Counted from the first letter of the stretch, positions 16,218 through 64,000 are shown. The stretch: 64,000 nucleotides of DNA from Ilumatobacteraceae bacterium (GCA_963704915.1 CAVPIC010000007.1:123819-187818), one strand, 5' to 3'. Notes: generated by a model not told the origin, from the sequence alone. Made by a program: numbers and translations.

Positions 16218-16348
16218 CCGCAGCGGCTCCCCAGTGACACCTGGAACGGGCCGATCGGCCCTGTCGGGACGACCCCCGGGCGCGTATCGTCGCCCGTGCG
16301 ATTGCGCCGATCGATGGAGAATCGCCCACCCCGACAGGAGGAACATCC

Positions 16349-17402
<1,054 letters not shown>

Positions 17403-17414
17403 GAGGAGCCGACA

Positions 17415-36309: not shown

Positions 36310-37202
36310 TGGCAGTCGTCGCAGGGCCCGATCTCGAGTGGCGCGAGCTGAGCCGGCGTGCCGCGCTCCAGTCCCATCGCCTGATCGGCTGGATCTACTG
36401 GGATCCACGAGCGATCGCCAACTATGCGGCACTCGGCGTCCCCGACGGGATCGGCTATTACATCGCCACTCGTGGCGCAACGCTGGGAGACGCCGGCAAC
36501 GACGTGGTGACGGCGGCGTTCTACTCCATTCATCCCGGCTTCGTCGCGTTCGGACTCGATCAGTGCCGCACGCACACGACGTTCGAGTCCGCCGCCGCGG
36601 CCCGTGATGCGGCCGTGACCGATGGCTTGCGCGAGTACGTGCCGGAGATCTGTGACGAGCTCGCGTCGATGGCGCCGCAACTCTGGGCCGCAGCCGACGC
36701 GCTCCCGCTGGCGGGACGAGCGTTGTTCGCGTCGACCCGTGCGTGGCCGCGTCCGGACGACGCGCTGGTGTCTGCGTGGCTCGCGGTCAACTGCATCCGC
36801 GAGTGGCGTGGCGACACGCACTGGGCGATCCAGATCGCCGAGGACATCACCGGCACTGCGGCCGGCATCCTCGACGGCGCCTGGCGGAACTACGACGGTG
36901 ACTGGCTGGCCCGCAGCCGCGGCGCCGACGACGCCGCGCTCGCGATCGGGTTCGCCGAGCTGGAGGCTCGTGGGCTCGCGTCCGACGGGGCGGTCAACGC
37001 GGCCGGCATCGAGTACCGGCAGGGGTTGGAGGATCGCCTCGACGATCTCTGCGCCGCGGCGTGGCGCCACCTCGGCGAGGACGCAACGGTCCGGTTCGTC
37101 GAACTCGTCGAACCGGTCGGCGGGCGGCTCGTCGAACGCATCGACGTCACCGCCGGCCCCAACTGGATGCCCGCAGCACGCGACCGGAAGGCCCCCTCGT
37201 GA
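36309..37202 (+). CDS. Conserved actinobacterial hypothetical protein (SCO6745-family-like)
   Basis: 297 aa containing LIGWIYWDPRAIANYAALGVPDGIGYYIATRGATLGDAG...VVTAAFYSIHPGFV. It has a TGATG junction with the dehalogenase gene. The family assignment is from memory only. Confidence 0.6.
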   Translation: MAVVAGPDLEWRELSRRAALQSHRLIGWIYWDPRAIANYAALGVPDGIGYYIATRGATLGDAGNDVVTAAFYSIHPGFVAFGLDQCRTHTTFESAAAARDAAVTDGLREYVPEICDELASMAPQLWAAADALPLAGRALFASTRAWPRPDDALVSAWLAVNCIREWRGDTHWAIQIAEDITGTAAGILDGAWRNYDGDWLARSRGADDAALAIGFAELEARGLASDGAVNAAGIEYRQGLEDRLDDLCAAAWRHLGEDATVRFVELVEPVGGRLVERIDVTAGPNWMPAARDRKAPS

Positions 37203-37684
37203 TCACCACCGAACGAACCCGGACGATCCCGGCCCGACAGTCACGGGTGTGGGATGTCCTCGCCGACTTCGACCGTCTCGCCGTCTGGGCCGACAACGCC
37301 GACCACACCTGCTGGCTCGACGAGCCCGCCGACGACGGCCGCATGATCGGCCGGGCACGCCGGGTGCAGGCCGGCAGGGTGGTGCTCGTCGAGCGGATCA
37401 CTGTCTGGGAGCCGCCGGCCCGCCTCGCCTACGACCTCGGCGGACTGCCGCCGGTGGTCAAGTCCGCAGTGAACGAGTGGCGTCTCGTCGCCGACCCGTC
37501 GGACGGCAACCGGACGATCGTCACGCTGGCCACCCACGTCGACTGCGGTCCTCGACCGCCACAGCAACTCATCGCCCGCCTCGTCGGCAAGCGCCTGGCC
37601 AAAGCGTCCGACGTGATGCTGGTAGGCCTGGCCGACCATCTCGCTGTGACGCACCTCTCCGATTTGAAGGGAACACCGACATGA
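37199..37684 (+). CDS. SRPBCC (START/polyketide-cyclase-like) family protein
   Basis: 161 aa with the typical start (ERTRTIPARQSRVWDVLADFDRLAVW). It has GTGA and ATGA overlaps with its neighbours. Confidence 0.75.
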   Translation: MITTERTRTIPARQSRVWDVLADFDRLAVWADNADHTCWLDEPADDGRMIGRARRVQAGRVVLVERITVWEPPARLAYDLGGLPPVVKSAVNEWRLVADPSDGNRTIVTLATHVDCGPRPPQQLIARLVGKRLAKASDVMLVGLADHLAVTHLSDLKGTPT

Positions 37685-40272: not shown

Positions 40273-41119
40273 CATGACCGACACGCGCACACCCCGCTAC
40301 GGAACCGTCGATCGTGAGTACGGGATGAGACTGGCGACCATGCCACCCGACGAGGACGGTCCGGTGTGGATGGTCAACCTCATGAAGTACCGCGAGGTTG
40401 CGGACTACGCCGACGGTCGCGAGTCGGCGATCAGCGGACGCGACGCCGACGATCTCTACACGCCGCGGGAGTCGCTCGCGGCGATCGGCGCCGAGATCGT
40501 GTTCGCCGGCGAGGTCGACCAGCAGTTGCTCGGCGACGCGCCGATCTGGGACCGCGTCGGGGTGGTGAAGTATCCGACGCGTCGCTCGTTCATCGAGATG
40601 CAGTCGCGTCCCGACTTCCAGCGCCAGCACGTCCACAAGGACGCCGGGATGGCCGAGACGATCGTCATCGGGTGCCAGCCGATCGACGTTCCGACGGCAC
40701 CCGACGGCACCGAGCCCGTCGACTGGGCCGACGTGCCGCACCCGCCGACCGACGGCGACGGCCCGGTGATGGTGATCCACGTCCTCAAGTACCACGAGGC
40801 CGCTACGGCATCGATCACGCCTGAGGACATGGCGGCATACCAGCGCGCCGCTGCCGAGGTCGCCGTTCCCCATGGTGTGCGGATCTCCGGGTGGTTCGCC
40901 GCCGAGGGCACGATCCTCGGTGACGGACGCACATGGGACCAGGTCCGGTTCAACCTGTTCCCGAGCAAGGCGGCGTTCATGGCGGTCGTGGTGGACCCGG
41001 CGCGCCTGGAAGCCCAGAAGTCCAGCCGTGAACCGGCGATCGCCGACACATACACGATGATCGTGCGGCCCTCGATCGACCACATCGCCGACAGCATTGC
41101 GGGCATCGACCTGCGATGA
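40262..41119 (+). CDS. Tandem DUF1330-domain protein
   Basis: It has two DUF1330-like halves (VWMVNLMKYREVADY...; VMVIHVLKYHEAATASI...). The start is ATG 40262 (11-nt overlap) or ATG 40274 (1 nt after the upstream stop). The stop codon 41117-41119 lies inside a palindromic repeat. Confidence 0.75.
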   Translation: MDSDMTDTRTPRYGTVDREYGMRLATMPPDEDGPVWMVNLMKYREVADYADGRESAISGRDADDLYTPRESLAAIGAEIVFAGEVDQQLLGDAPIWDRVGVVKYPTRRSFIEMQSRPDFQRQHVHKDAGMAETIVIGCQPIDVPTAPDGTEPVDWADVPHPPTDGDGPVMVIHVLKYHEAATASITPEDMAAYQRAAAEVAVPHGVRISGWFAAEGTILGDGRTWDQVRFNLFPSKAAFMAVVVDPARLEAQKSSREPAIADTYTMIVRPSIDHIADSIAGIDLR

Positions 41120-41215
41120 GCCAAGTGTCGCCATTCAGGCGGTTCGCTCATCGCTGGGGTGGGAACGTTGTCTGCGATGAGCGAAGTGTCGGTATCCGGG
41201 CGGTTGGCTCATCGC
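41113..41215. repeat. Array of two 42-bp palindromic elements (41113-41154, 41174-41215) with a 61-bp period
   Basis: The copies read GCGATGAGCCAAGTGTCGCCATTCAGGCGGTTCGCTCATCGC and GCGATGAGCGAAGTGTCGGTATCCGGGCGGTTGGCTCATCGC. Confidence 0.9.
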
Positions 41216-41234
41216 TGGGGAGGGAGCGCCCTCG

Positions 41235-41771
41235 GTGAGTGGGCCTCGGTACTTTGCATTCATGCGGGCGATCAACACCGGTACGCGGAGGTTGACGAAC
41301 GAGCGGCTGCTGGAGCCCTTCGTCGAACTGGGCTTCACCGACGTCGCCGCCTACCAGGCGGCCGGCAACGTCACGTTTCGCAGCGATCATGCGGTCGACG
41401 AGCACCGCATCGAACGCGAGCTGGCAGCGGCGTACGGCTTCGACACGCCGGCGTTCGTCCGATCGGCGGCCGACGTGAGAGCGATCGCCGACGTCGAACC
41501 GTTCTCGCCGACGGAGATCGCTGCGACGGCCAGAAAGGTGCAGGTGACGTTCCTGCGGAGCCCACCGTCACGCGATCAGATCGCTGCCCTCGTCGATCTC
41601 GCCCCCGACGACGACCTCGTGCGGGTGATCGGATGCGAGTGGTACTGGCTGCCGGTCGAGGGCATCAGCGGGTCCAAGCTCGATGTCGGGCAGGTCGAGT
41701 CGCTGCTGGGCGAAATGACCATGCGTACCCTCGGAACCGTGGCACGTATGTCGAGCAAGTTCGCCGGCTGA
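41235..41771 (+). CDS. DUF1697-family protein
   Basis: 178 aa with a GTG start. It contains YFAFMRAINTGTRRLTNERLLEPFVELGFTDVAAYQAAGNVTF, characteristic of DUF1697. Confidence 0.8.
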   Translation: MSGPRYFAFMRAINTGTRRLTNERLLEPFVELGFTDVAAYQAAGNVTFRSDHAVDEHRIERELAAAYGFDTPAFVRSAADVRAIADVEPFSPTEIAATARKVQVTFLRSPPSRDQIAALVDLAPDDDLVRVIGCEWYWLPVEGISGSKLDVGQVESLLGEMTMRTLGTVARMSSKFAG

Positions 41772-41803
41772 GCTCCCCGGCTGAGCTCCCCGGCTGAGCT
41801 CCA
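41766..41803 (+). repeat. 13-bp tandem repeat (GGCTGAGCTCCCC) with 2.9 copies
   Basis: Sequence: GGCTGAGCTCCCC GGCTGAGCTCCCC GGCTGAGCTCCA. The first unit contains the DUF1697 stop codon. Confidence 0.8.
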
Positions 41804-41812
41804 CCAGCACCA

Positions 41813-41864
41813 CGTTTGTGATGCAATCCGGGTGGGGCGGTCCACCGAAACCGTCACGCAAACG
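41813..41864 (-). repeat. 52-bp element with inverted termini (copy C, reverse orientation)
   Basis: The reverse complement reads CGTTTGCGTGACGGTTTCGGTGGACCGCCCCACCCGGATTGCATCACAAACG. It is exactly 52 bp, like copies A and B. Confidence 0.7.
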
Positions 41865-41918
41865 TGGGTCGAGGAAACCGATTGTCGGTCACTGCTGGGA
41901 ACGAGGCAAGATCCGCCG

Positions 41919-42563
41919 ATGCCACCTGTTCATTCGCTCGCCGCCTTCGCAGCGGTGTCGTTCGCGATCATCATCATTCCGGGACCGAGCGTGATGTTCG
42001 TGGTCGGCAGGGCGTTGTCGCTCGGCCGGCGCGCCGCACTCGTCACGGTGGCCGGTAACGCGCTCGGTTTCTACGTCCAGGTGATGCTCGTGGCGGTCGG
42101 CCTCGGAGCGATCGTCGAGCGATCGGCAGCCGTGTTCACCACCATCAAGCTGATCGGTGCGCTCTACCTCGTCTGGGTCGGGGCGCAGGCGATCATTCAC
42201 CGTCGGGCCAACGCTCAGCGTGCGGTCCTCGTCGAGGGCGCTGACGTGGTGGGCCATCGGTCGCTGTTCCTGGACGGCTTCGTGGTGGGCGTGGCGAATC
42301 CCAAGACGATCGTGTTCTTCGCCGCGATCCTGCCCCAGTTCGTGGCCGCCGGCGGCGCTCCGGCTGGGGTGCAGATGCTGGCGCTCGGGGTGATCTTCGC
42401 AGTGATTGCGTTGGCATCCGACAGCGCGTGGGGCCTCGCCGCAGGGACCGCACGACAGTGGTTCGCAGGCTCGCCCAGGCGACTCGAACTCGTCGGCGCC
42501 GCAGGAGGCGCGGCGATCGTGGGTCTCGGGGTTCGATTGGCGCTCACACGCCGCTCCGACTGA
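41919..42563 (+). CDS. LysE/RhtB-family amino-acid exporter
   Basis: 214 aa with AAVSFAIIIIPGPSVMFVVGRAL and FVVGVANPKTIVFFAAILPQF. Confidence 0.85.
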   Translation: MPPVHSLAAFAAVSFAIIIIPGPSVMFVVGRALSLGRRAALVTVAGNALGFYVQVMLVAVGLGAIVERSAAVFTTIKLIGALYLVWVGAQAIIHRRANAQRAVLVEGADVVGHRSLFLDGFVVGVANPKTIVFFAAILPQFVAAGGAPAGVQMLALGVIFAVIALASDSAWGLAAGTARQWFAGSPRRLELVGAAGGAAIVGLGVRLALTRRSD

Positions 42564-42582
42564 TGGCGCCTGCCGGCGGCCT

Positions 42583-42745
42583 GCCATGAGCCAACCGCCC
42601 GAATCCCGGCTTTTCGCTCATCGCTGGGCGCGTACACCGTGTCCGATGAGCGAAGCGCCCGGATGGCGTCACTTGGCTCATCGCAGGCGGTTGGACTCGG
42701 TCAGCGATGAGCGAACCGCCCGAATCCCGGCTTTTCGCTCATCGC
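42583..42745. repeat. Array of three 42-bp palindromic elements (42583-42624, 42643-42684, 42704-42745)
   Basis: The periods are 60 and 61 bp. The core subtypes alternate a-b-a. Confidence 0.9.
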
Positions 42746-42767
42746 TGGGGATGGGCGGCGGTGTTGG

Positions 42768-44474
42768 TCAGGTGAGGTCGAACCAGGACAGCGTCTCGGC
42801 GACGGCGATCGGATCGGACGCGTTGGCCTGTGCGCTCGGGTCGTCGAGCACTTCCGAGATACTGCGGCGTCCGTTGAGCACTTCGCCCCACGATCTCCGA
42901 TCGATCTGCAGGACGACGTCGGCGTCGACACCGTCGGTCGGCGCGGCGACGCCGTTGCGGACGTGGAGACCGGCTGCACCGTCTGGGAGCTCGATGCACA
43001 GGTGCCGTTCGGCGCCCTCACAGCGTTGCGGGTCGAGCATCACCCGCAGGATGTGGACCACGTCGCTGGGGTCGGCGTCGGCGACCTGGGCGCCGGGAAA
43101 CCGGTGGCGGCGGAATCTCGTCGTGTCGATGGCTCCCTCGAGCTCCAGCGCTCGCGTGAGACTCCAGTTGCGGATGTTGGCTGACGTGGTGCGCTGGCCG
43201 ACCGCACGCAGCGCTGCAGCGAGGCGGCCGCGGTCTTCACGGCAGTCGGGATCGACCCGTACGAGCCAGGTTGCCAACTCGAGCGCCCACCGCAGATCGT
43301 CGTCGGCAAGTGCGGCGTCGATCTGCGTGCGCACCTGGTCGACGCCACCGAATCCGTCGATGAGCTTACGCGCACGCTCGATCGGCGGCACCGGGAACAG
43401 CCGCGCCGTGTCGCCGTCGAACCATCCGCGCAGCCCGGTGTGGATCTGTCGGACGTGGTGTTCGGCCAGTCCGTAGAACTGGGTCTGGAAGTACGAGTCA
43501 CCGCACGAGTCCGGCAACTGGACGAACTCCGTCAGCTCGCCATGGGTGAGGCCCTTGTTGACGCCGCGCACGGTCTGGTCCCACATGAACTGGATGGCGT
43601 CGCGGCTGCGTGTCAGCTCGGTGCGGATGCGATCCGTTCCGCTGATCGGTGGTCCGTGCGTGCCAACCAGATGCTCGGCGTCGAGGCCGATCATGTGGTC
43701 GAATCCGGCGAGCAGGATACGTGGGTCGCGGTACTCCTCGCCGCGGATCGCGAACACGTTGAACAGCGCCGGCCACGCCAGGTTGTTGACGCACACCCCG
43801 AGGTCGGGGAACCAGATCGTGATCGAGTCGGTGGCATCGGACTCGGCCGGGGTCAGCTCGACCCTCAGTCCGGCGAGGGTGATCGTCACGGGTTCGCCGA
43901 ATGTGTCGGTCGGCTCGAGGAAGCCCTCGGTGAACGGCGCGTGCTCGGGGATCCGGAACGCGGGCCCGAGGCCGCCGCTGACGAGTGCGTCGGGCCCCGC
44001 CGGCGGCAGCAGCATGCCGAACTGGTGCACGAGCCCATACTGTGAGACCGGTCCGACCTCGCCCGCCTGGCGGCGACGGTTGGCGATCACACCCGCGTGT
44101 GCCCAGATGGGAATCGACGATGACGCGCCAGACTCGATCAGGGCCTCCGTGCCGCCGACGTAGTGGAAGTGGCTGTAGATCACACCGACCACCGGTGCAG
44201 CAGTGTGGGTACGCACCTGCTCCAGCGACCACCGCATCTCCTCGATCGAGTCGCCGGTGTCGATGACGATCAACCCATCGGGCCCCTCGACGAACGTCTG
44301 GTTGGACAGACCATTGCCGACGGCGCACCACACGCCCGGGGCGACCTCGTGCAGCCGTCGCTCGAACCGTTGCGCGTGCTCGATCGCCTCGCGCCGAGCA
44401 AGCGCACCGTTCGGAGCCGTCGAAACGCGCGACTCGTCGCGGTCGAAGCTGGCGGGAATCGTTGGCGCGGTCAT
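42768..44474 (-). CDS. MBL-fold alkyl/aryl sulfatase (SdsA1/Bds1-type, with a C-terminal SCP2-like domain)
   Basis: 568 aa containing LIVIDTGDSIEE, VIYSHFHYVGG, a dimerisation region (FYGLAEHHVRQIHTGLRGWFDGD) and a C-terminal SCP2-like segment. The gene is intact. Confidence 0.85.
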   Translation of the reverse strand: MTAPTIPASFDRDESRVSTAPNGALARREAIEHAQRFERRLHEVAPGVWCAVGNGLSNQTFVEGPDGLIVIDTGDSIEEMRWSLEQVRTHTAAPVVGVIYSHFHYVGGTEALIESGASSSIPIWAHAGVIANRRRQAGEVGPVSQYGLVHQFGMLLPPAGPDALVSGGLGPAFRIPEHAPFTEGFLEPTDTFGEPVTITLAGLRVELTPAESDATDSITIWFPDLGVCVNNLAWPALFNVFAIRGEEYRDPRILLAGFDHMIGLDAEHLVGTHGPPISGTDRIRTELTRSRDAIQFMWDQTVRGVNKGLTHGELTEFVQLPDSCGDSYFQTQFYGLAEHHVRQIHTGLRGWFDGDTARLFPVPPIERARKLIDGFGGVDQVRTQIDAALADDDLRWALELATWLVRVDPDCREDRGRLAAALRAVGQRTTSANIRNWSLTRALELEGAIDTTRFRRHRFPGAQVADADPSDVVHILRVMLDPQRCEGAERHLCIELPDGAAGLHVRNGVAAPTDGVDADVVLQIDRRSWGEVLNGRRSISEVLDDPSAQANASDPIAVAETLSWFDLT

Positions 44475-54186: not shown

Positions 54187-56055
54187 ATGGCCAACGACGT
54201 CAATGTGACCGCCGAGTTGCAGGGGACCATCGTCGCGGTGTTCGTCGAGGCCGGAGCGCCGGTGGCGGCCGGCGACGTCCTGGCGCTCGTCGAGTCGATG
54301 AAGATGCATCACGAGATCGTCGCTCCCGTGTCCGGCGTCGTCGACTCGCTCGCGGTCAGCCAGGGTGACACGGTCGCGATCGGTCAGCAGTTCGCCTGCA
54401 TCACCGAAGGTGCTGGGCCGCTCGAGGTCCATCCGGCATCTGGCGCTGCTCCCGCGTCGCCCATCGGCCTGGAGCGTGACGACCTGCGCGAAGTGATCGC
54501 CCGACACGAGATCGGCCTCGACGCGCAGCGGCCGCGGGCGGTCGAGCGGCGGCGCTCGAGGGGGCACCGGACCGCGAGGGAGAACATCGGTGACCTCGTC
54601 GACGATGGCACGTTCGTGGAGTACGGGCCGCTCGTGATCGCAGCGCAGCGCCGCCGGCGCAGCGTCGAGGACCTGATCGCGTCGACCCCGGCCGACGGGC
54701 TGGTCGGCGGGATCGGCGAGGTGAACGGCGAGCTGTTCGGCTCCGGCTCGTCGAGCCGTGCATCGAAGGTCGTCGCCGTCTCCTACGACTACACCGTGCT
54801 CGCCGGGACACAGGGCACGCAGAACCATCGCAAGAAGGACCGCCTGTTCGAGGTCGCCGAGCAGCTGCGGATCCCGATCGTGTTCTTCACCGAGGGCGGC
54901 GGCGGACGCCCGGGCGACACCGACGGCATCGGCGTGAGCGGGCTCGACTGTCTCGCCTTTCGATGGTTCGCCGAACTCTCCGGCACGGTGCCCCTCGTCG
55001 GGGTGAACTCGGGCTACTGCTTCGCCGGCAACGCAGCGATCCTCGGGTGCTGCGACGTCGTGATCGCCACCGAGGACTCGAACATCGGCATGGGTGGACC
55101 GGCGATGATCGAGGGAGGCGGGCTCGGCGTGTTCCAGCCCACGGAGATCGGTCCGATCGAGGTGCAACGACGCAACGGTGTCATCGACATCGTCGTCGCC
55201 GACGAGGCGGCCGCTGTCGCGGCCGCCAAGCGGTACCTCTCGTACTTCCAGGGACGCACCGCTGTCTGGGCGGCACCCGACCAGGCGGCGTTGCGCGACG
55301 TCGTGCCGGTCGACCGGCTCCGCGTGTACGACATCCGCCGCGCGATCGACGGGCTCTTCGACACCGACTCGGTGCTCGAGCTCCGTCGCGAGTTCGGCAT
55401 CGGGATGGTCACCGCCCTCGCTCGGATCGAGGGCCGACCCGTCGGGGTCGTCGCCAACGACCCGGGCCACCTCGCCGGGGCGATCGACTCCGACGGAGCC
55501 GACAAGGCGGCGAGGTTCATGCAGTTGTGTGACGCGTTCGGGTTGCCGATCGTGACGTTGGTCGACACGCCGGGGATGATGGTCGGCCCGGATGTCGAGG
55601 CGACGGCGCTCGTTCGCCACTGCAGCCGGTTGTTCGTGACGGGAGCGAACCTCTCGGTTCCGATGGTGTCGGTGGTGACCCGCAAGGCCTACGGCCTCGG
55701 GGCACAGGCGATGATGGGTGGCACCACCAAGGCGCCGGTCGCCTGCCTGTCGTGGCCGACCGGAGAGTTCGGGGGCATGGGGCTCGAGGGCGCCGTGCGG
55801 CTCGGGTATCGCAAGGAGCTCGAGGCCGTCACCGACGACGCCGAACGTGAGGTGCTGTTCCGCGAGATGGTCGACCGGATGTACGCCCACGGCAAGGCCG
55901 TCAGCGTGGCCTCGTTCTTCGAGATCGACGACGTGATCGACCCAGCCGACACCCGGCGCTGGATCACCACGATCTTCGACGCCGCGCCCGAGACCCACCG
56001 GGCCGCGACCGACCCGACGGCCCCACCCCGGCGCCCGAACATCGACACCTGGTGA
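54187..56055 (+). CDS. Acyl-CoA carboxylase carboxyltransferase with an N-terminal biotinyl (BCCP) domain
   Basis: The first 70 or so aa carry the biotinylation motif (LVESMKMHHEI). The rest is a PccB/AccD-type carboxyltransferase (FTEGGGGRPGD...GYCFAGNAA...DTPGMMVG). Confidence 0.85.
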   Translation: MANDVNVTAELQGTIVAVFVEAGAPVAAGDVLALVESMKMHHEIVAPVSGVVDSLAVSQGDTVAIGQQFACITEGAGPLEVHPASGAAPASPIGLERDDLREVIARHEIGLDAQRPRAVERRRSRGHRTARENIGDLVDDGTFVEYGPLVIAAQRRRRSVEDLIASTPADGLVGGIGEVNGELFGSGSSSRASKVVAVSYDYTVLAGTQGTQNHRKKDRLFEVAEQLRIPIVFFTEGGGGRPGDTDGIGVSGLDCLAFRWFAELSGTVPLVGVNSGYCFAGNAAILGCCDVVIATEDSNIGMGGPAMIEGGGLGVFQPTEIGPIEVQRRNGVIDIVVADEAAAVAAAKRYLSYFQGRTAVWAAPDQAALRDVVPVDRLRVYDIRRAIDGLFDTDSVLELRREFGIGMVTALARIEGRPVGVVANDPGHLAGAIDSDGADKAARFMQLCDAFGLPIVTLVDTPGMMVGPDVEATALVRHCSRLFVTGANLSVPMVSVVTRKAYGLGAQAMMGGTTKAPVACLSWPTGEFGGMGLEGAVRLGYRKELEAVTDDAEREVLFREMVDRMYAHGKAVSVASFFEIDDVIDPADTRRWITTIFDAAPETHRAATDPTAPPRRPNIDTW

Positions 56056-56058
56056 GTG

Positions 56059-57069
56059 CTAGGCGCCGCAACCGGTTGCGAGCACCTCGGTGAGTTCGCC
56101 GTCGTCGTAGGCGTACACGATCACCGCGGCACCCTCGTAGTACCAGGCGTGCACCAGGACCTCCATGCGCCCGTCACCGTTGAGGTCGGCGACGTCGAGG
56201 ATGCGGTACCGCTCGATGATCTCGAAGGACCCCTCGTCGTCGTCGCCGTCGCCGTCGCCGGGATCGTCGGGAACCGCCGAGAGCAGCACGGTGTCGGCCG
56301 CACGGGTGGTCGCGTCGATCACCAGCAGCGCGGCGAGGTCGCCCGGTGCCCCGACAATGCTCGGTTGCACGAACTCGAACGACACCAGGGCCTCGTCGTC
56401 GCCGTCGCCGTCGAGATCGGTGACCACGAGTTGTTCGACGGCCCCTTGTGTGGCGTCGACGGCCTCGTCCTCAAATGCTGCTTCGCCCAGCGCCCGATAG
56501 GCCTCGGGCGCGGTCGAGCTGACGGCGACCGGCCTCGGCTTGAGCGCCCAGGGCTTCTGCAGGACTGCGACGGCGCTGTAGCCGAAGCCCGGCGGTTCGG
56601 GAGGCGCAATCTCGACGTCGATCGCCGGGCCGACGCGCCCGTCGAAGCAGGCCTCGGTGTTGTCGCCCAGCGTGACCGGCGTCTCGCCGGCCAGGTTGCT
56701 GACGACGAACGACGTGCCCGCTTCGATGCCCGGGCGGATCGGGTTGCCGCTCGGATCGGTCGCCTCCTGCCAGCGGTCCTGCTGCCAGGCGCCGAGGAAC
56801 AGCCATCCGCCGTCGCTCGATCCTCCGATCAGGAGCGGGACCAGGGCGTCGGCGGGACCGCTGGGTGCGGTGGTCGTCGACTCGGGCGGTGCCGTCGTCG
56901 TGGTCGTGGACTCGGGTGGCGAGGTGGTGGTGGTCGTCGAGGTGGTGGTCGTCGACGTGGTGGAGGTGAGCGTCGGTTGTGGCGACGACTGTTCCTCGGT
57001 GGTGCACGCGGCGATCAGGAGTGCGATCCCCAGGGCGGCGGCAAGCGGCGTGGCAGAACGAGCCCTCAC
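56059..57069 (-). CDS. Lipoprotein with a Thr/Pro-rich linker and FG-GAP/Ca-binding-like DxDGDG motifs
   Basis: It has a signal peptide with a lipobox (ALLIAAC), a TSTTT... linker, and the motifs DLDGDGDDE and DLNGDGRME. Confidence 0.7.
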   Translation of the reverse strand: MRARSATPLAAALGIALLIAACTTEEQSSPQPTLTSTTSTTTTSTTTTTSPPESTTTTTAPPESTTTAPSGPADALVPLLIGGSSDGGWLFLGAWQQDRWQEATDPSGNPIRPGIEAGTSFVVSNLAGETPVTLGDNTEACFDGRVGPAIDVEIAPPEPPGFGYSAVAVLQKPWALKPRPVAVSSTAPEAYRALGEAAFEDEAVDATQGAVEQLVVTDLDGDGDDEALVSFEFVQPSIVGAPGDLAALLVIDATTRAADTVLLSAVPDDPGDGDGDDDEGSFEIIERYRILDVADLNGDGRMEVLVHAWYYEGAAVIVYAYDDGELTEVLATGCGA

Positions 57070-57818
57070 GGTACGGTCACCGATTCACCGGGTTGCAGGA
57101 GATGGAGGTGGCTCGAGAGCTCGGCATCGTCGAGTGCCGCCGCGAAGAGATCGGGCGGAGTTTCGAACCAGCTCGGCAGTTGGCGGCGGCCATCTTCCGG
57201 AGCGTAGGTCCCCCAGTGGATCGGGACGACGATGCCGGGTCGGATCAGCCCGGTTGCCGTCGCGGCCCTCGTCGGGTCGAGGTGTCCCACGCCCAGTGAC
57301 GATCCCCATCCCCAGATCGGCAGCAGTGCGACGTCGATGTCCGTGAGCGATTCCATCCCCGCGAACAGGTCGGTGTCGCCTGGGAAGTAGACGCGGCGAC
57401 CCTCCCCACTGACGACGTATCCGATCGGCGGTGCCGACACACGGCTGTGCGGGCCGCGGCCGTGCTTGTGTGCTGCGGGAACCACCTCGGCGGTCACGAG
57501 CGGGCCATCGAGGTGGACCGTGTCGCCGACGCGCACCTCGGTGACGTCGGTGAATCCGGCCGCTCGCAGCAACCGGCCGGTGCCGATCGGCGTGACGAAG
57601 CGGGTGTCGGGGCGGACGCGGCGCAGCGATGGAAGGTGGAGATGATCGAGGTGTGCGTGCGAGAGCAGCACGGTGTCGACGTCGGCGATGTCCGGGGCCG
57701 GCAGCTCCCGGCGTCGGCGGAGGTGGGCGACGCGCCGGGTCAGCAACGGGTCGGTCAGGATGCGATGGCCGCCGACCTCGATCAGCGCTGTGGCATGGCC
57801 AACCCAGTGCACCTTCAC
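57066..57818 (-). CDS. MBL-fold metallo-hydrolase
   Basis: 250 aa with a GTG start, containing VHWVGHATALIE...ILTDP and LLSHAHLDH. Confidence 0.8.
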   Translation of the reverse strand: MKVHWVGHATALIEVGGHRILTDPLLTRRVAHLRRRRELPAPDIADVDTVLLSHAHLDHLHLPSLRRVRPDTRFVTPIGTGRLLRAAGFTDVTEVRVGDTVHLDGPLVTAEVVPAAHKHGRGPHSRVSAPPIGYVVSGEGRRVYFPGDTDLFAGMESLTDIDVALLPIWGWGSSLGVGHLDPTRAATATGLIRPGIVVPIHWGTYAPEDGRRQLPSWFETPPDLFAAALDDAELSSHLHLLQPGESVTVP

Positions 57819-57838
57819 GCCACCAGGCTAGGCCAAGC

Positions 57839-57890
57839 CGTTTGCGTCACGGTTTCGGTGACCCGTCTCGCCAGAATTGCAGCGCAAACG
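57839..57890 (+). repeat. 52-bp element with inverted termini (copy B)
   Basis: Sequence: CGTTTGCGTCACGGTTTCGGTGACCCGTCTCGCCAGAATTGCAGCGCAAACG. It lies 21 bp upstream (on the opposite strand) of the MBL gene start. Confidence 0.7.
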
Positions 57891-57931
57891 TGGTGCGGTG
57901 TGGTGTGGTGTGCGTGGCGTCGGATGACAGT

Positions 57932-58930
57932 TCAGCCGAGGTCGGGCCAGCGGCGCTGCTGTCGACGGCGCAGGCCGGCGGTGCCGAGCTTGCGGCGTTC
58001 CGCGAGTGCCCAGTCGCGGCGCCAGCCGGTGTGGTCGGGGCCGGTCAGCGTCGGGCTGGTGCCCGACGCGGCCCGTTGGCGTGCGGTCCAGAAGTCGGTG
58101 ATGGCCTCGTCGCCGAGCACGGTGACGGCAGCTTCGATACGGCCGTTGAAGTGGCGCGTCGATTCGCCGTCCTCGCTGTGCAGTGGCGCCCCGAACACGA
58201 CCTTGGTGCGACCGGGCTTCGGGCGCTTCATTCCCTTGCCGAAGATGGCCCCGGTGCCGTCGATGAACACGGGCACGACCGGAGCGCCGGTGCGCGCCGA
58301 CAGGTAGGCGGCACCGCCCTTGAAGTCCTGCCCCCATCCGTCGGGTGACCGGCCACCTTCGGGGTAGATCACCAGGCTGTAGCCGTCATCGACCAGGCCC
58401 TTGATCATGTCCGACGACTTGCGGCCCGTGAGTTCGCGGTCGATCGGAATCGCGTTGAGCGACAGCGCGGACAGGGTTGCCTTCCACTTCTTGTCGAAGA
58501 AGTAGTCCGCTGCAGCGGCGACCACCAGCTTGTGACGCCAGGCGAGCGGCACCGACCGGATCATCAATCCGGTGTCGAGGTGGCTGTGGTGGTTCGGTGC
58601 GAAGATCACCGCGGGAGGATCGTCGAGCGATGCGAGATCGGCGAGCCGGTCGGTGCCGACGATCTCCGGTGACGCGAGGACGCGAGTGGCCAGACGAACC
58701 GGACCCTCGACCATCGCGGTGCGCACGGACGTCGCGAGGGGTCGGCGCGCCCACTCGGTGTCGTAGTGCGCGCCCAGCCCGGAGACCTCGGGCGGCACCT
58801 CGACGCCGCGAGGAACCGTGGGCGCCCGGTAGGGGAACCCGAAGTTGCGCAGCGGCAGGGTGGCGCGCCGTAGGGCGTCCTCGGCGAAGCCGGCGGCCCG
58901 CTGAGCCCGCTGGAGGTTCCGGTCGACCAT
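57932..58930 (-). CDS. Lysophospholipid / 1-acyl-sn-glycerol-3-phosphate acyltransferase (PlsC family)
   Basis: 332 aa with the HX4D block (APNHHSHLDT) and the YPEGGRS block. Confidence 0.8.
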   Translation of the reverse strand: MVDRNLQRAQRAAGFAEDALRRATLPLRNFGFPYRAPTVPRGVEVPPEVSGLGAHYDTEWARRPLATSVRTAMVEGPVRLATRVLASPEIVGTDRLADLASLDDPPAVIFAPNHHSHLDTGLMIRSVPLAWRHKLVVAAAADYFFDKKWKATLSALSLNAIPIDRELTGRKSSDMIKGLVDDGYSLVIYPEGGRSPDGWGQDFKGGAAYLSARTGAPVVPVFIDGTGAIFGKGMKRPKPGRTKVVFGAPLHSEDGESTRHFNGRIEAAVTVLGDEAITDFWTARQRAASGTSPTLTGPDHTGWRRDWALAERRKLGTAGLRRRQQRRWPDLG

Positions 58931-58938
58931 CGAGATCT

Positions 58939-60525
58939 CTACTTCACGTCCGCGATCATCAGCGGCGGGGTCTTGATGTGGGTGATCGTCGGGGAGCGGC
59001 CAACGACGTCCGAGGCGATCTCGAAGGCGTCGTTCATGGTGGACGCGGGCGTGAAACCGAGCTTGCGAACGGTCGCCGGGTCGCCGCCGACGATGATCAC
59101 CTTGCCGACGTGCTTCAGGGCATGGCTGCCCCAGTACCACATGTAGAATGGGTGGACGCCGTGGTAGGCGTTCGTGGTGCGGTACAGGTGGCGGTACCAG
59201 TCGTCCTCCGCGTACTGCTTCTCCCACTTCTGCGACATCACGTGCGGGTCGCGAGTGTCGGCCAGCACCTCTTCGAAGAAGTCGATGTAGCTGGGGTGAT
59301 GCACCGGGTGGAACTCGTTGGTGGTCGGATGGGTGAGGATCAGCACACCTCCCTCACGCACGAGCGGCTTGCCGCGGTAGAGGTTGAAGAAGTACCCGAG
59401 TCCGGTGCACATCACGAGGATCGGGTTCATGATCGAGTGGACGTTGTAGGGGCAGATGTAGGGGATGCCCATCGTGAGGATGTCGGTCTGGCCCTCGACC
59501 TCGACGAGTTGCTGGTCGTACACGTTCTGGGTGGTGACCTTGTGGACCGCCTCGACCTCGCCGCACTGGATGCTGGTCATCTGGTGCGGCGCTTCGATGC
59601 CCTGGAAGATCTTGCGGGCGGTCCGCGCCGGCAGCTTCGCCACCGACTTGGCGGTACCGAGATAGAGCGCCCGGTCCTTCGCGTTCCACTCCCACTCGCG
59701 CTTGGAGAGGAACTCGAAGGGTTGCGGGAACGTGTCGGTGTTCAGCGTCGTCTCGATCTGGAACACCTTGGGGCCGTGGTCGCGCATGACCTTGCCCATG
59801 CGCCACGTGCTCTTGTGGAGCTCGGACGCGTGCTGGTCCATGAACGAGTGCGACGCCTCCATCGTGGTCGGGTTGTGGTGATGGCGCAGCGATCGGTAGC
59901 TGGCGAGGCCGACGGCGGTCGACTTCCAGCCGCCGTCCATGGCGACGAGGTTGATGTTGACGTAGACGAGCAGGTCGGATTCGGCGGCGCGCTTGTTGAT
60001 CTCGATCTCTTCGCCCTGGTCGGTCGTGCCGAGGAAGGCGAGGTTGTCCGGGTCTTCGGCGTCGTGCTGGTACAGCAGGCCGCGCGGCTCGAAGGCGTCG
60101 TAGACGCGGTCGCCGAGGGCGTGGCGCAGCTCGAATTCGTGCATCCGCCGGTGCAGTGCGAGCGCGGCGATGATGTGGACGTCGTCGACGCCGGCATCGG
60201 CGGCCATCGTGAGCACCTGCTCGATGATCCGTTGACGCAGGTCGGGTCGGCGCATCTGCGGCAGCGGCAGCGACACGTCGTCGAACGCGATCGTGAGCTT
60301 CATGCCGGGGAACAGCAGCGACGGCAGCGGGTCCATGTCGATCGGATTGAGCAGCGCCGTGCGGATCGCGCCGTCGATGTCGTCGATCGCCTCGTGCGGC
60401 TCGGGCGCGTAGATCACCCGTGAACGGTCAGCGGGGAGCTTCTCGAGGCGGAACCCCTCGCCGTGCCAGAACAGGGTGGGCGGCGTCGACTTGTCGACGT
60501 CCAGAACGAATCCAGGGCGTGGCAT
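58939..60525 (-). CDS. LarA-like (lactate racemase N-terminal domain / DUF2088) protein
   Basis: 528 aa containing KLTIAFDDVSLPLP, DLLVYVNINLVAMDGGWKSTAVGLASYRSLRHHHN and a typical LarA-family C-terminal half. Confidence 0.75.
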   Translation of the reverse strand: MPRPGFVLDVDKSTPPTLFWHGEGFRLEKLPADRSRVIYAPEPHEAIDDIDGAIRTALLNPIDMDPLPSLLFPGMKLTIAFDDVSLPLPQMRRPDLRQRIIEQVLTMAADAGVDDVHIIAALALHRRMHEFELRHALGDRVYDAFEPRGLLYQHDAEDPDNLAFLGTTDQGEEIEINKRAAESDLLVYVNINLVAMDGGWKSTAVGLASYRSLRHHHNPTTMEASHSFMDQHASELHKSTWRMGKVMRDHGPKVFQIETTLNTDTFPQPFEFLSKREWEWNAKDRALYLGTAKSVAKLPARTARKIFQGIEAPHQMTSIQCGEVEAVHKVTTQNVYDQQLVEVEGQTDILTMGIPYICPYNVHSIMNPILVMCTGLGYFFNLYRGKPLVREGGVLILTHPTTNEFHPVHHPSYIDFFEEVLADTRDPHVMSQKWEKQYAEDDWYRHLYRTTNAYHGVHPFYMWYWGSHALKHVGKVIIVGGDPATVRKLGFTPASTMNDAFEIASDVVGRSPTITHIKTPPLMIADVK

Positions 60526-61724
60526 CAGTTGGCTTCCTTGCGCAGGTCGAACGCGATCTTGACGGCGCCGCGGCGGCCGGCGGTGGCGGCGTGGGCGATG
60601 GCGTCGACGTGGTCGGGCAGTGGATAGGTGGCCGAGAGCAGGCGCTCGGCGCGCAGCTCGTCGGCGGTCTCGATGGCGAGGTCGAACGTGCGAACCGTCC
60701 GGCCGTCGGGGAGGTGTTCGGTGCCGTAGGTGTAGGCGCCCTTGAGTTCGGTCTCGCGGTGCCAGAGCCCGGTGAGGTCGAGCGTGACGTCGGCGGGCAT
60801 GCCGAGCAGCACGACGCGCCCGCGCGGACGCGTGATGCGCAGGCAGTCGGCCACGGTGTCGCTGGTGCCGACGGCGTCGATCGTGACGTGGGCACCCGAC
60901 GACAGGTGGTCGCCGACCATGTGGCAGCCGGCAGCTCGCCGTACCGCTCGGGCAAGCTCGTCGGGGGCGACGACGACGTCGGCGCCGAACTCCTTCGCGA
61001 ACTGGCGCTGGTGGGGGTAGCGGGCGCCGGCGATGATGCGGACGTCGGGCACGTAGCGGCGCAGTCCGGCGATCGCCGCGAGGCCCATCGTGCCCGCACC
61101 GAGCACAGCGACGATCGCGGGCTGGCTGGTGTCGCTGCGAGCCGCGACGACCGGTGCCGCGAGCAGAGCGGCGTGGATGCCGCCGGCGAACGGCTCGACG
61201 AGCACGGCGCGCTCGTCGGGCATGTCGTCGCCGATGCGGTGGAGTTGTGACTCGTGTGCGACGAACTCGGGGGCCCAGCCGCCGCCGGTCGAGCAGCAGA
61301 ACCCGGTCTGGATTCCTGGCTCGAGCGGGCCCGTGGCGAGGTGGGCGTAGTCGTCGCCGTCGCCGGGCGCGGCACCCTCGAACGGGGGAGCGAAGCCGCG
61401 CGCCTCGTGGCCGAGGACCGGTTCGAGGATCACGCGCGTGCCGTCGTCGAGCTCGCCGACGACCTCGTGGCCGGGGACGAACGGGAACGACACCCAGTCC
61501 TCGAAGTACAGCGACGCATGGCCCTCGACGAGCGAGAGGTCCGACCCGCAGATGCCGGCGAGTCGGGTGCGCACACGCTGCCATCCCGGCCCGGGGAGTT
61601 CGGGCTCGTCGACCGAGGTGTACTCGAGCGGCCCCAACTTGGTGGCCGTGACGGGCGAGATCGCCGACGCGATCAGCGCCATCCCGAGCTTGCGCACCGA
61701 ACGCGAGACCTGCAGCGCCTTCAC
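60525..61724 (-). CDS. Zinc-binding alcohol dehydrogenase family protein
   Basis: 399 aa with a GTG start, containing LAGICGSDL, PGHEVVG and GAGTMGLAA. It has overlapping stop/start junctions with both neighbours. Confidence 0.8.
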   Translation of the reverse strand: MKALQVSRSVRKLGMALIASAISPVTATKLGPLEYTSVDEPELPGPGWQRVRTRLAGICGSDLSLVEGHASLYFEDWVSFPFVPGHEVVGELDDGTRVILEPVLGHEARGFAPPFEGAAPGDGDDYAHLATGPLEPGIQTGFCCSTGGGWAPEFVAHESQLHRIGDDMPDERAVLVEPFAGGIHAALLAAPVVAARSDTSQPAIVAVLGAGTMGLAAIAGLRRYVPDVRIIAGARYPHQRQFAKEFGADVVVAPDELARAVRRAAGCHMVGDHLSSGAHVTIDAVGTSDTVADCLRITRPRGRVVLLGMPADVTLDLTGLWHRETELKGAYTYGTEHLPDGRTVRTFDLAIETADELRAERLLSATYPLPDHVDAIAHAATAGRRGAVKIAFDLRKEAN

Positions 61725-64000
61725 GCGCGGGCTCCGAAGCGTTCGTTGCGCTGGCGTTCCGACAGCAGCGGCCCGATCGGCAGGCGAGGGCGGGGACCGC
61801 CCGGCGCCTTCGTCCAGTGTTCGACGAGCCAGCCGCGCTTGCGGGCGATCGCGGCCAGGCGTGTCTCGGGGTTGACCGCCACCGGGAAGCCGACCGCCTC
61901 GAACAGCGGGAGGTCCGACGACGAGTCGGCGTAGGCGACGCACTCGTCGAGGTCGAATCCCTCCGCGTCGCAGTAGTCGGCGAGCACCTGCGCCCGCGCT
62001 TCGCCGGTCGGCGGAACCGTGTGCATCTCGCCCGAGTAGGTGTTGTCCGACTTGATCGTCATCTCGGCAGCGACGATCTCGTCGAAGAGCGGTCGCAGCC
62101 CCTCGACGTTGAAGCTCAGTGCACCGGTGATCAGGATCGTCCGATGGCCCATCGCGCGGTGTTGACGGACGCGCCGCATGCCCTCCGGGAACGACTTGGT
62201 CATGATGATCTGGCCGAACATCTCGCGGGCGTCGGCCTCGATCTGCTCGACCGGCGCGTCCTCGTAGCGGCGGTAGAAGTAGCGCAGGAAGTCGCTGCGG
62301 TCCGCTCGGTCGAGCTTCAACAGCCCCGGGCCCTCCACGAGGGTGCGCAGCACGTAGCGGAGCCGCTCGGGCGTGTCGAGGCGGCGGGTGGCGAGCCACG
62401 AATAGCTCTCGACGACGTTCGACGAGATCAGCGTGTTCTCGAGGTCGAACGCGACCACCTGCCGCTTCGGGTCGAGCACCTGCTTGCGCAGCCGCGCCAT
62501 GCGGTCCGACGACGGTGAAGGACCGGGTGTGGTCTTGACCCGGGCGTGCTTGACGATCGACGGCAGGTGGATCTGGGTGATGTAGGTCGGCCAGTCGACC
62601 GAGCGCGGGTCGAAGTTGAACGTCGCCCTGTCGGCGTCGTCGAGCTCGCCCCAGGTGAGCATCAGGTTGTCGACCTGGTAGATCGCCTCGCACTCGGTGT
62701 ACAGGCCGTAGAGCTCGACGTAGGTGAGTGCCCGCTCGACCTCGGTGCGCTTCGTCTCGACCTGGGCCGACCACTCGGCCTGGCGCCCGCGCAGCGGGAG
62801 GTTCTGCAGCACCTTCTCGCCGGCAGACAGGATCGTCTTGGCCCGGTTCAACTGGCCCTGCACCCGGCCGCGGCCGGGGAAGCGGAACTCGGGCACGACG
62901 ATCGGCTGGCCCTTGGAGTCGTAGATCGGGTGCTCGAGGAACCAGCCGCTCACGTTGTCGACGAGCATCCGGTACTTCAGCGGGTTGATGCCGCCCGAGG
63001 CGACCTGCGTGATCTCTGGGGCTCGCTCCGGGCCGAGGGCAGCGACGGCGATGATCGAGGCGACGACGATGTCGACCGGGATGACGTCGACGGTTCCCTC
63101 GGGCACGCCGGGGAACTCGTCGAGCAGACCGCGGGCGTAGGAGATCAGCACCGGCTCGGCCATGCGGAACCCGCGGATCCAGCCGGGCTTCGGTTCGGCG
63201 AGCGCGGATTCGATGATCGACGGGCGGACGATCGACACCGGCACCGGGCCCTTGACGTCGGTCAGCGCCTGCTCGCCGAGTGCCTTGGTGAACGCGTAGG
63301 CGTCCGGCCATCCGACGCTGGCGGCCCGCGCCCGACCGGCGTCGACGAGCTGGTCCTTGACCCACTTCTCGCGCAGCTGCTCGGTCTTCGAGGCGAGCGC
63401 GGGTGCGCCGGCCGCGCCGAGCTCGGTCCGGGCCTCCTTGCGGAACGCTTCGAGCTGCTCGCGGGTGCGGCTCGCCGCGTCGGCGTCGGACCGCAGCCGC
63501 CGGCTCGCAGCAACTTCGCTGCGCCAGTCGATGCCGATGTCGAAGGGGCCGTCGCTGACGAGCTTCTCGGGCGCGTTGCCGCGACGGTTGCCGGCGACGT
63601 AGCACGTCGACACGGCCACGAGGTGTGGGGTGATGCCGATCGCGTTGCACAGATCGGCGATGCGCGACGGGCCGAGCAGGTTGATCTCGACGGCGGAGTC
63701 GAGCGGCGAGTCGAACGACACCGCAGCGGCGGAGTGGATCACGGTGTCGCAGCTGGCGAAGGTCGCCCGATCGGCGTCGTTCAGTCCCAGCCCGTCGCGG
63801 GTGACGTCGCCGGCGATCGTGGTGACCCGACTGGTGACCGTGGCGAAGTCGACGCCCTGTTCGGTGCACTGCGCACGCAGCCGGTCGAAGGCGTCGTTCT
63901 TGAAGATCTCGCGATCGGTGCGTCGTGCGGCGCTGGTGCGTTGGCCGTCGCGCACGAGCAGTACCAGCTCGCAGTCGGGGACCGATCGCAGCAGGCGTTC
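61721..64000 (-). CDS. Fatty acyl-CoA reductase (male-sterility NAD-binding domain) fused to a HAD-IB phosphatase domain; 5' end outside window
   Basis: The frame is open to the window edge (ERLLRSVPDCELVLLVRDGQ...). The FAR domain has VIHSAAAVSF, STCYV and YAFTKALGE. The C-terminal HAD-IB domain has VVAFDLENTLISSN and YADSSSDLPLF. Confidence 0.8.
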   Translation of the reverse strand, partial: ERLLRSVPDCELVLLVRDGQRTSAARRTDREIFKNDAFDRLRAQCTEQGVDFATVTSRVTTIAGDVTRDGLGLNDADRATFASCDTVIHSAAAVSFDSPLDSAVEINLLGPSRIADLCNAIGITPHLVAVSTCYVAGNRRGNAPEKLVSDGPFDIGIDWRSEVAASRRLRSDADAASRTREQLEAFRKEARTELGAAGAPALASKTEQLREKWVKDQLVDAGRARAASVGWPDAYAFTKALGEQALTDVKGPVPVSIVRPSIIESALAEPKPGWIRGFRMAEPVLISYARGLLDEFPGVPEGTVDVIPVDIVVASIIAVAALGPERAPEITQVASGGINPLKYRMLVDNVSGWFLEHPIYDSKGQPIVVPEFRFPGRGRVQGQLNRAKTILSAGEKVLQNLPLRGRQAEWSAQVETKRTEVERALTYVELYGLYTECEAIYQVDNLMLTWGELDDADRATFNFDPRSVDWPTYITQIHLPSIVKHARVKTTPGPSPSSDRMARLRKQVLDPKRQVVAFDLENTLISSNVVESYSWLATRRLDTPERLRYVLRTLVEGPGLLKLDRADRSDFLRYFYRRYEDAPVEQIEADAREMFGQIIMTKSFPEGMRRVRQHRAMGHRTILITGALSFNVEGLRPLFDEIVAAEMTIKSDNTYSGEMHTVPPTGEARAQVLADYCDAEGFDLDECVAYADSSSDLPLFEAVGFPVAVNPETRLAAIARKRGWLVEHWTKAPGGPRPRLPIGPLLSERQRNERFGARA

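Follow-up and report, generated by a model that had tools for sequence, protein, structure and literature searches.

In Myxococcus xanthus, an aerobic bacterium, the main route to alkyl ether lipids is independent of AGPS and depends on the elb operon. The operon, elbABCDE, runs from MXAN_1531 (elbA) to MXAN_1527 (elbE) (PMC13012113), with elbD as MXAN_1528 (PMC11980068). Alkyl and vinyl ether lipids decrease when elbD carries an insertion or elbE is inactivated, an i15:0 aldehyde is elbD-dependent, the AGPS homologue MXAN_1676 makes only a small contribution to ether lipids, and elbC is described as encoding a protein of unknown function (PMC9131029). Here we describe a four-gene operon at the end of a 64,000-nucleotide stretch of DNA from an Ilumatobacteraceae bacterium (GCA_963704915.1 CAVPIC010000007.1:123819-187818; the whole stretch is referred to below as the window). 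It encodes a fatty acyl-CoA reductase (FAR) fused to a HAD-IB domain, a zinc-dependent dehydrogenase, a LarA homologue (LarAH) and a PlsC-type acyltransferase. Because it has the same set of modules as the M. xanthus elb operon, again without AGPS, we lean towards reading it as the Acidimicrobiia form of an elb-type alkyl-ether glycerolipid operon, in which LarAH would carry out hydride shuttling on the lipid backbone.

Relatives of this LarAH have been catalogued before. Desguin et al. (2020; PMC7583248) divided 354 LarA homologues among 25 groups and tabulated their neighbours in Table S1. Group 14 has eight members (among them those of Acidimicrobium ferrooxidans, Ilumatobacter coccineus and Frankia), with COG0204 (PlsC), COG0560 (HAD/SerB) and COG1063 (Zn dehydrogenase) each in 88% of neighbourhoods and COG3320 (thioester reductase) in 50%. 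Group 15, the members of which are not named in Table S1, has two COG0451 genes, COG0560 and COG1022 (acyl-CoA synthetase) as neighbours, and group 16 (Frankia) has COG0204 and COG0560. All three groups are labelled 'unknown function', and group 15 is not related to elbC in that paper. A LarA homologue in a lipid context, which the original prediction from the sequence had called unexpected, was therefore already on record in that table and is the rule for this branch of LarA. The window LarAH is of the same family as Frankia LarAH14, Afer_1430 and YM304_22240, with the same signature (D, L, H, gap/Asn, K, H) and the same neighbours (COG0204, COG0560, COG1063, COG3320) and no difference of substance; by its sequence it is a further member of group 14. 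MXAN_1529 of M. xanthus is listed in group 15 (PMC7583248, Table S3) and lies within the locus-tag run MXAN_1531–1527, and therefore elbC is MXAN_1529 and encodes a LarA homologue. No paper containing both 'ElbC' and either 'lactate racemase' or 'nickel-pincer' was found in the literature searched, and the link between ElbC and the LarA family seems not yet to have been drawn in this open literature.

An independent gene call based on GC content at third codon positions (GC3) divided the last 6 kb of the 64-kb window into four minus-strand genes, at 57932-58930, 58939-60525, 60525-61724 and 61721->64000, the last of which reaches the window edge. The genes and their junctions, in the order of transcription, are:

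61721..64000, minus strand: FAR-HAD fusion gene, 5' end past the window edge (Pfam, 7eoz and ElbB/ElbD alignments)
61721..61724, minus strand: GTGA junction, FAR-HAD stop over dehydrogenase start (sequence read directly)
60525..61724, minus strand: Zn-dependent medium-chain dehydrogenase, polyol / ketose-reductase type (ADH_N, ADH_zinc_N, solved relatives)
60523..60527, minus strand: TGATG junction, dehydrogenase stop over LarAH start (sequence read directly)
58939..60525, minus strand: LarA-family protein, LarAH group 14, ElbC orthologue (Lar_N, NF052592, MXAN_1529 alignment)
58931..58938, minus strand: 8-nt spacer, LarAH stop to PlsC start (sequence read directly)
57932..58930, minus strand: PlsC/AGPAT-type acyltransferase (PF01553, HX4D and PEGGRS motifs)

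Direct reading of the junctions and the independent gene call bear out the predicted coupling of the four genes through GTGA, TGATG and an 8-nt gap. The FAR-HAD stop codon TGA (61723-61721) shares bases with the GTG start of the dehydrogenase (61724-61722), which has a GGAG 7 nt to its 5' side. The dehydrogenase stop TGA (60527-60525) shares a base with the LarAH start ATG (60525-60523), preceded by AAGGAAG, and the LarAH stop TAG (58941-58939) is followed after 8 nt by the ATG of plsC at 58930. The LarAH junction at 60523-60527 thus stands as first described, with the start of the gene moved from 60527 to 60525. A consensus scan of 55900-64000 found no promoter or terminator sites, although such a scan is uninformative in this GC-rich genome.

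Domain searches returned the four products originally proposed. Within the fusion protein the FAR part occupies ~62537-64000 and the HAD-IB domain ~61820-62464 (minus strand); the window edge cuts off some 30 residues of the N terminus, among them the dinucleotide-binding motif GATGFVG. At the nearest genome locus (L026, 97% LarAH identity) the orthologue is ~790 aa long and starts with GATGFVG. The fusion protein matches NAD_binding_4 (9e-50, 169.6 bits) and HAD PF12710 (2e-26, 94 bits), and the Sterile domain at 33.5 bits, slightly below the cut-off of 35.4. Its residues 1-488 align to residues 33-508 of fatty acyl-CoA reductase 7eoz (E 4e-54), the best solved relative, and the YxxxK motif is conserved as YAFTK, such that both a Rossmann domain with YxxxK and a FAR C-terminal domain are present. 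PlsC matches PF01553 (1e-15, 57.8 bits) and T. maritima PlsC 5kym, and has the HX4D (NHHSHLD) and YPEGGRS motifs of a PlsC/AGPAT enzyme.

The likeness to the elb operon extends over all of these modules bar the dehydrogenase. The M. xanthus locus (L087) encodes an SDR (ElbA), a HAD PF12710 protein (ElbB), a Lar_N protein (ElbC), ElbD, with NAD_binding_4, Sterile, AMP-binding, PP-binding and Acyltransferase domains, and a second SDR (ElbE). When ElbA-E were searched by tblastn against the whole 64-kb window, matches were confined to LarAH, HAD, FAR and PlsC. LarAH is 49% identical to ElbC over 523 aa (E 0.0), the HAD domain 33% identical to ElbB over the full length of the latter (E 4e-34), the FAR domain 30% identical to ElbD residues 45-541 (E 3e-43), and PlsC 37% identical to ElbD residues 1270-1394, its C-terminal acyltransferase domain (E 8e-18). 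An ElbC orthologue hence adjoins ElbB-like HAD, FAR and AGPAT modules in the window. Both operons are tightly coupled and on one strand, and neither cluster contains AGPS (elb operon: Lorenzen et al. 2014, reviewed in PMC9131029). Two further elb-type loci from metagenomes have the order HAD, Lar_N, ElbD, SDR, with junctions that overlap or nearly do so.

The two operons differ in how the modules are distributed. In the window FAR is fused to HAD and PlsC is free, whereas in M. xanthus the HAD protein is free (ElbB) and FAR is joined to acyl-CoA synthetase (ACS), acyl carrier protein (ACP) and AGPAT domains in ElbD; the single-protein architecture of ElbD is absent from the window operon. A Zn-dependent polyol-type dehydrogenase stands in place of the SDR reductases ElbA and ElbE. 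Finally, M. xanthus elb is tied to ether lipids, whereas the window host is an actinobacterium without reported ether lipids. The operon is thus a new architectural variant of a known, partly understood elb-type system. The original guess of an ether or otherwise modified glycerolipid gains from the elb homology of the LarAH, HAD, FAR and AGPAT domains and from elb genetics (PMC9131029), whereas its accompanying ideas, an unexpected LarA and a stereo-inversion, do not survive.

We then asked how widely the arrangement is kept. A scan with one genome per species gave at least 595 loci encoding relatives, and conservation was counted over the best 80, all of them from Acidimicrobiia (Ilumatobacteraceae, Microthrixaceae, Aquihabitans and others), with LarAH identities of 70-97%. 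Window proteins were mapped on these 80 loci by tblastn and counted only where the contig reaches far enough. FAR-HAD lies upstream in 61/61 judgeable loci and PlsC downstream in 70/70; the dehydrogenase is present in 68/71, all four genes in 53/55, and FAR-HAD, LarAH and PlsC together in 55/55. At three loci LarAH directly follows FAR-HAD with no dehydrogenase between them. Gene order and tight junctions are the same in 53/55 loci, with LarAH identity falling as low as 70%. The operon is therefore a conserved functional unit, and the conservation of the cluster, proposed in the original prediction as a check on a shared pathway, speaks for it. Chance adjacency of four unrelated genes, for which one can cite no more than how common these families are in Actinomycetota generally, is refuted by this conservation and by the occurrence of the modules in Myxococcota as well, leaving it virtually no probability. 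In four marine metatranscriptome assemblies, short contigs 85-99% alike fall on each of the four genes, at a depth that is low and much the same throughout; one contig (60371-60725) crosses the dehydrogenase/LarAH junction. As the contigs are short and from related organisms, with possible DNA carry-over, they give weak support for expression and no proof of a single transcript.

LarAH matches Lar_N (PF09861; 1.4e-37), and PF09861/DUF2088 is the LarA superfamily of enzymes dependent on the nickel-pincer nucleotide (NPN). It also scores 888.4 bits (cut-off 740) against NCBIfam NF052592, 'NPN-dependent hydroxyacid isomerase, LarAH14/15/16 family', over the full model (1-520/520). Its AlphaFold model (pLDDT 95.4) matched LarA-family chains in 19/19 significant PDB hits, led by 9q3k/9q3j (template-modelling score, TM, 0.79/0.86) and followed by classical LarA, Mar2 and GntE. 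Alignment to Lactiplantibacillus plantarum LarA (5huq) and LarASp (9q2u) places the catalytic Asp72, which touches the cofactor ribose, at D83 (FDD), the catalytic His108 at H125, Lys184, the thioamide tether of NPN, at K201 (GGWK) and the nickel ligand His200 at H217 (RHHH). The second catalytic histidine, His174, is replaced by N192 (VNINL), such that the pair of catalytic histidines is incomplete. Arg75, which binds the carboxylate and the NPN phosphate, is Leu in the 5huq alignment, and the group 14 signature has Asn in place of Lys298 (Desguin et al. 2020, PMC7583248, Table S3); LarAH thus has neither of the residues that bind a 2-hydroxyacid carboxylate. Absence of His174 in groups 14 and 15 was recorded by Desguin 2020 and Gatreddi 2025. 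An alignment of 60 sequences, drawn from Acidimicrobiia, the ElbC branch and a third branch that stands alone, shows no variation at D83, H125, K201 or H217 and conservation of at least 90% at N192.

These substitutions have consequences for what LarAH can do. Judged from its residues, it very likely binds NPN, and very likely could abstract a hydride with one general base while being incapable of the classical two-base inversion and unfit for an alpha-hydroxy-carboxylate. A 2-hydroxyacid racemase role appears unlikely because of the Asn at the second His and the loss of the carboxylate-binding Arg. L. plantarum LarA has the same fold and the four equivalent residues, but LarAH, besides the three replacements, is ~100 residues longer and has no adjoining lar maturation genes, and lactate racemisation is not expected of it.

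The same evidence bears on the proposal that LarAH inverts a stereocentre, either by racemizing a 2-hydroxy acid or by interconverting sn-glycerol-3-phosphate and sn-glycerol-1-phosphate backbones to give a lipid of unusual configuration. Membership of the LarA superfamily and the retained NPN anchor residues fit this idea, the M. xanthus ether lipid TG-1 is drawn as a rac-glycerol lipid (PMC9131029), and relatives occur in metagenome-assembled genomes (MAGs) of Asgard archaea. By the established mechanism, however, two-way inversion needs two catalytic histidines, and in LarAH the second is a conserved Asn; the positions of Arg75 and Lys298 are Leu and Asn, and purified Frankia LarAH14, supplied with NPN, was inactive in all seven racemase/epimerase assays, which used 2-hydroxyacid substrates. 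The Asgard and other distant relatives, moreover, have no lipid context. We regard stereo-inversion as highly improbable, and that part of the original prediction is not supported.

The distant relatives form a triad-bearing LarAH branch of 35-40% identity. At its loci in Lokiarchaeota, a deltaproteobacterium and an Actinobacteria MAG, the gene stands alone, without lipid genes near it. In a Lokiarchaeota MAG (L082, 8001-9539) the relative lies beside a GH38 alpha-mannosidase and an ADP-ribosylglycohydrolase, again without lipid genes, and a Promethearchaeota MAG (P0348) contains a further Asgard triad-bearing relative, ~35-40% identical. Since this branch has no lipid neighbours, the lipid link is limited to LarAH groups 14-16 and does not hold for the whole family.

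The joint NCBIfam name 'LarAH14/15/16' also prompted us to consider a gluconate/mannonate 2-epimerase, as a 2024 JBC paper equates a Phytophthora 'LarAH15' with GntE. This was rejected: the Phytophthora enzyme is said to have a GntE-like pocket and lies on the GntE branch, while groups 14 and 15 of 2020 lack His174 and are actinobacterial and myxobacterial. The group numbering of the 2020 and 2024 papers could not be reconciled.

The best sequence match to LarAH among solved structures is the pair LarASp/LarABw (PDB 9q2u, 9q3k, 9q3j; Gatreddi et al. 2025; E 5e-32). These single-His proteins share with LarAH an Asn at the His174 position, the NPN lysine, the nickel histidine and a length of ~500 aa. 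They are octamers that bind NPN covalently and contain a ~316-Da ligand, which the authors provisionally modelled as a phosphorylated sugar (Gatreddi et al. 2025). Their ligand contacts Tyr307 and His401 are kept in LarAH (Y360, H458), but structure-based identity is only ~20-22%, and LarAH has Leu for their Lys76 and Pro359 for their His306. The contexts also differ: genes for LarASp/LarABw adjoin triose-phosphate/glycolysis genes, a carbohydrate setting, whereas that of LarAH is lipid.

The dehydrogenase matches ADH_N and ADH_zinc_N and contains the zinc-ligand motifs GICGSD and PGHE, giving the GroES-like and Rossmann domains and the Cys/His/Glu ligands of a medium-chain Zn dehydrogenase. 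It weakly matches scyllo-inosose, L-idonate, threonine and galactitol-1-P dehydrogenases, and no equivalog model reached its cut-off. Its nearest solved relatives are NADP(H) ketose reductase 1e3j, sorbitol dehydrogenase and L-threonine 3-dehydrogenase, with xylitol dehydrogenase likewise among the nearest named or solved relatives. Going by these relatives, the enzyme is of the type that oxidizes a secondary alcohol of a polyol and not a fatty-alcohol dehydrogenase; it is a candidate oxidoreductase for the keto/hydroxyl state of backbone C2. The product first proposed, a zinc dehydrogenase, is correct.

The HAD domain departs from the canonical pattern. It scores 96 bits against TIGR01490 (cut-off 98.3) and retains motifs II (T) and IV (DSxSD), but motif I is FDLENT, with Glu in place of the second Asp (Asp+2), the general acid/base, and the Lys of motif III is Arg; the DxDx(T/V) motif I and motif III Lys of a canonical HAD-IB enzyme are hence both lacking. 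M. xanthus ElbB, in contrast, has the canonical FDVDGT and Lys (DxD/Lys as against DxE/Arg in the window). The two replacements are invariant in 66/66 Acidimicrobiia orthologues, which argues for a function of the domain.

Several observations weigh against an elb-type operon with a nickel-dependent LarAH. With its DxE and Arg, the HAD domain may be no ordinary phosphatase, although it may act in the manner of one. ElbA and ElbE have no tblastn match in the 64-kb window at E<1e-5, the operon contains no AMP-binding or PP-binding domain, and ElbD residues 542-1269 are unmatched in the window. FAR 7eoz, of the Marinobacter type, is at least as close to the FAR domain as ElbD is. On the genetic side, the effects of elbB insertion have been ascribed to polarity (PMC9131029), ElbD homologues are also present in bacteria (Pontiella) that showed no ether lipids, and a literature search found no paper tying Acidimicrobiia to alkylglycerols or ether lipids. 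No genes for cofactor maturation lie near, either: tblastn with L. plantarum LarB/C/E (larC, larE and a frameshifted larB, taken from a plasmid collection) found no larB/larC/larE in the window, nor at 80 loci in the 10 kb on either side of LarAH, so that the search suggested with the original prediction came back empty over this range, and no called window gene has a LarB/C/E-type Pfam domain. About half of 60 full-length family representatives (50%-cluster, 29-55% identical to the window LarAH) are without the His/Lys/His triad, and Frankia group 16 lacks the NPN lysine yet keeps its PlsC and HAD context (Desguin et al. 2020). Given these triad-less relatives and group 16, the family may not need NPN to function.

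The last of these points would be explained if LarAH were not a nickel enzyme at all but a substrate-binding, scaffolding or regulatory subunit acting through a His-rich C-terminal site. Triad-less representatives do keep that site (equivalents of H399, H410, H455, H458, Y448, R449 and W463), Frankia group 16 still lies beside PlsC and HAD without the Lys, no lar maturation genes are near, and some database entries name ElbC orthologues 'transcriptional regulator'. Against this, the triad is invariant in 60/60 sequences of the three aligned branches, which argues for selection on cofactor binding, and the nearest solved relative binds NPN covalently. We judge a non-nickel role quite unlikely. 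Triad loss with retention of the C-terminal site in LarAH relatives suggests a second conserved site or cofactor-free paralogues. A look-up of the exact LarAH sequence found no record of it, a search of the plasmid collection with LarAH gave only distant classical larA genes in a context that was not useful, and a literature search for lar maturation genes in Myxococcus or Frankia found nothing.

Some of the remaining points would suit a fatty-alcohol or wax-ester pathway, or another neutral-lipid pathway, with no ether bond, in which FAR makes fatty alcohol, PlsC esterifies this or a lysolipid, and LarAH, the dehydrogenase and HAD act on a side substrate. FAR is closest to the alcohol-forming FAR 7eoz across its whole length, PlsC-family enzymes are ester-forming, and ElbD homologues are not always predictive of ether lipids. 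Wax synthesis, however, needs no phosphatase, polyol dehydrogenase or LarA-type protein, and precisely these genes are kept with FAR in 53/55 loci and in the elb operon, which is genetically tied to ether lipids. A neutral-lipid pathway is accordingly unlikely.

In the elb-type pathway that we prefer, FAR would reduce acyl-CoA to fatty aldehyde or alcohol, as expected from the chemistry of its family. LarAH would hold the nickel-pincer nucleotide on Lys201 and His217, with His125 moving a hydride on a glycerol-phosphate / dihydroxyacetone-phosphate backbone, and this hydride step might be what an ether bond made without an AGPS-type synthase needs. The Zn dehydrogenase, replacing ElbE/ElbA, would set the C2 keto/hydroxyl state of the alkylated backbone, PlsC would acylate the free hydroxyl and the HAD domain would take off the phosphate. 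The predicted product is a 1-O-alkyl-acyl-glycerolipid. In the eukaryotic/myxobacterial AGPS route (FAR1, GNPAT, AGPS and acyl/alkyl-DHAP reductase, where DHAP is dihydroxyacetone phosphate) the counterparts in the window operon are FAR, a PlsC/GNPAT-type acyltransferase and a ketoreductase candidate. No FAD-dependent AGPS domain occurs in any called window gene; where the eukaryotic route has AGPS, the window operon has a LarA-type protein at a conserved place. Both may follow the same overall logic, in which a triose-phosphate backbone is combined with fatty alcohol or aldehyde.

A bolder form of this scheme, which we put forward tentatively and consider rather unlikely, is that ElbC/LarAH14 supplies the enzyme missing from the AGPS-independent pathway to ether lipids in bacteria, the one that forms the ether bond. 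NPN would take the C2 hydride of glycerol-phosphate and give it to the carbon of a hemiacetal/oxocarbenium derived from the FAR-made fatty aldehyde, for a net conversion of aldehyde and glycerol-3-phosphate to 1-O-alkyl-dihydroxyacetone phosphate and water. Alkyl-DHAP would next be reduced by the Zn dehydrogenase (or ElbE), acylated by PlsC and dephosphorylated by HAD. NphT is a precedent for NPN hydride transfer by a non-racemase (PMC13524815).

Genes flanking the operon were also considered. In many loci a divergent TetR-family gene lies just upstream of FAR-HAD (5658-6254, minus strand, in L026); it is a likely regulator of the operon and in the case of the window would lie beyond the end. 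Ddl, MurF and MFS genes upstream, and GltB/GltD, LysM, aconitase, citrate synthase and LysR genes downstream, were rejected as pathway genes because they reflect lineage synteny. Two genes follow PlsC in the window:

57066-57818, minus strand: MBL-fold metal-dependent hydrolase, after a 113-nt gap from PlsC
56059-57069, minus strand: 336-aa protein with faint FG-GAP / lipoprotein matches, 4-nt overlap with the MBL-fold gene

Both were rejected as operon members, being kept only in the closest relatives. Convergent to these neighbours is a plus-strand gene (54187-56055) for a 622-aa protein in which a biotinyl/lipoyl carrier domain is joined to a carboxyltransferase domain (methylmalonyl-CoA decarboxylase alpha-like); such a fusion is unusual in a component of an acyl-CoA carboxylase.

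Elsewhere in the window, several sulfatase-type genes are clustered at 32549-44474. They include two sulfatase fusions, one of 948 aa with an MBL-fold domain (32549-35395) and one of 863 aa with a DJ-1/PfpI domain (37681-40272), and a sulfatase-type gene with an alkyl-sulfatase dimerisation domain (42768-44474). Two RPE65-family carotenoid cleavage oxygenases are encoded on the plus strand at 2257-3609 and 4251-5645, followed by a Zn-dependent dehydrogenase at 5649-6590. A DeoC/LacD aldolase lies between two phosphofructokinase-family genes at 15219-18563 (plus strand); its open reading frame (16932-17402) covers only the C-terminal half (profile 126-229), such that the start may be mis-called or the gene split.

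The main value of this locus lies in the explicit link between ElbC and the LarA family and in its compact four-gene set. Structures of single-catalytic-His LarA proteins have been solved, and the ElbC link supplies a candidate reaction both to that field and to the study of ether lipids. Should LarAH form the ether bond, this would be the first non-isomerase reaction on a LarA fold and a new route to ether lipids under oxic conditions; should the product be no ether lipid, the operon would still be a widely conserved lipid unit. Acidimicrobiia are abundant in marine, freshwater, sediment and soil samples, and may be an overlooked source of environmental biomarkers that are alkyl glycerol ethers of the non-isoprenoid kind.

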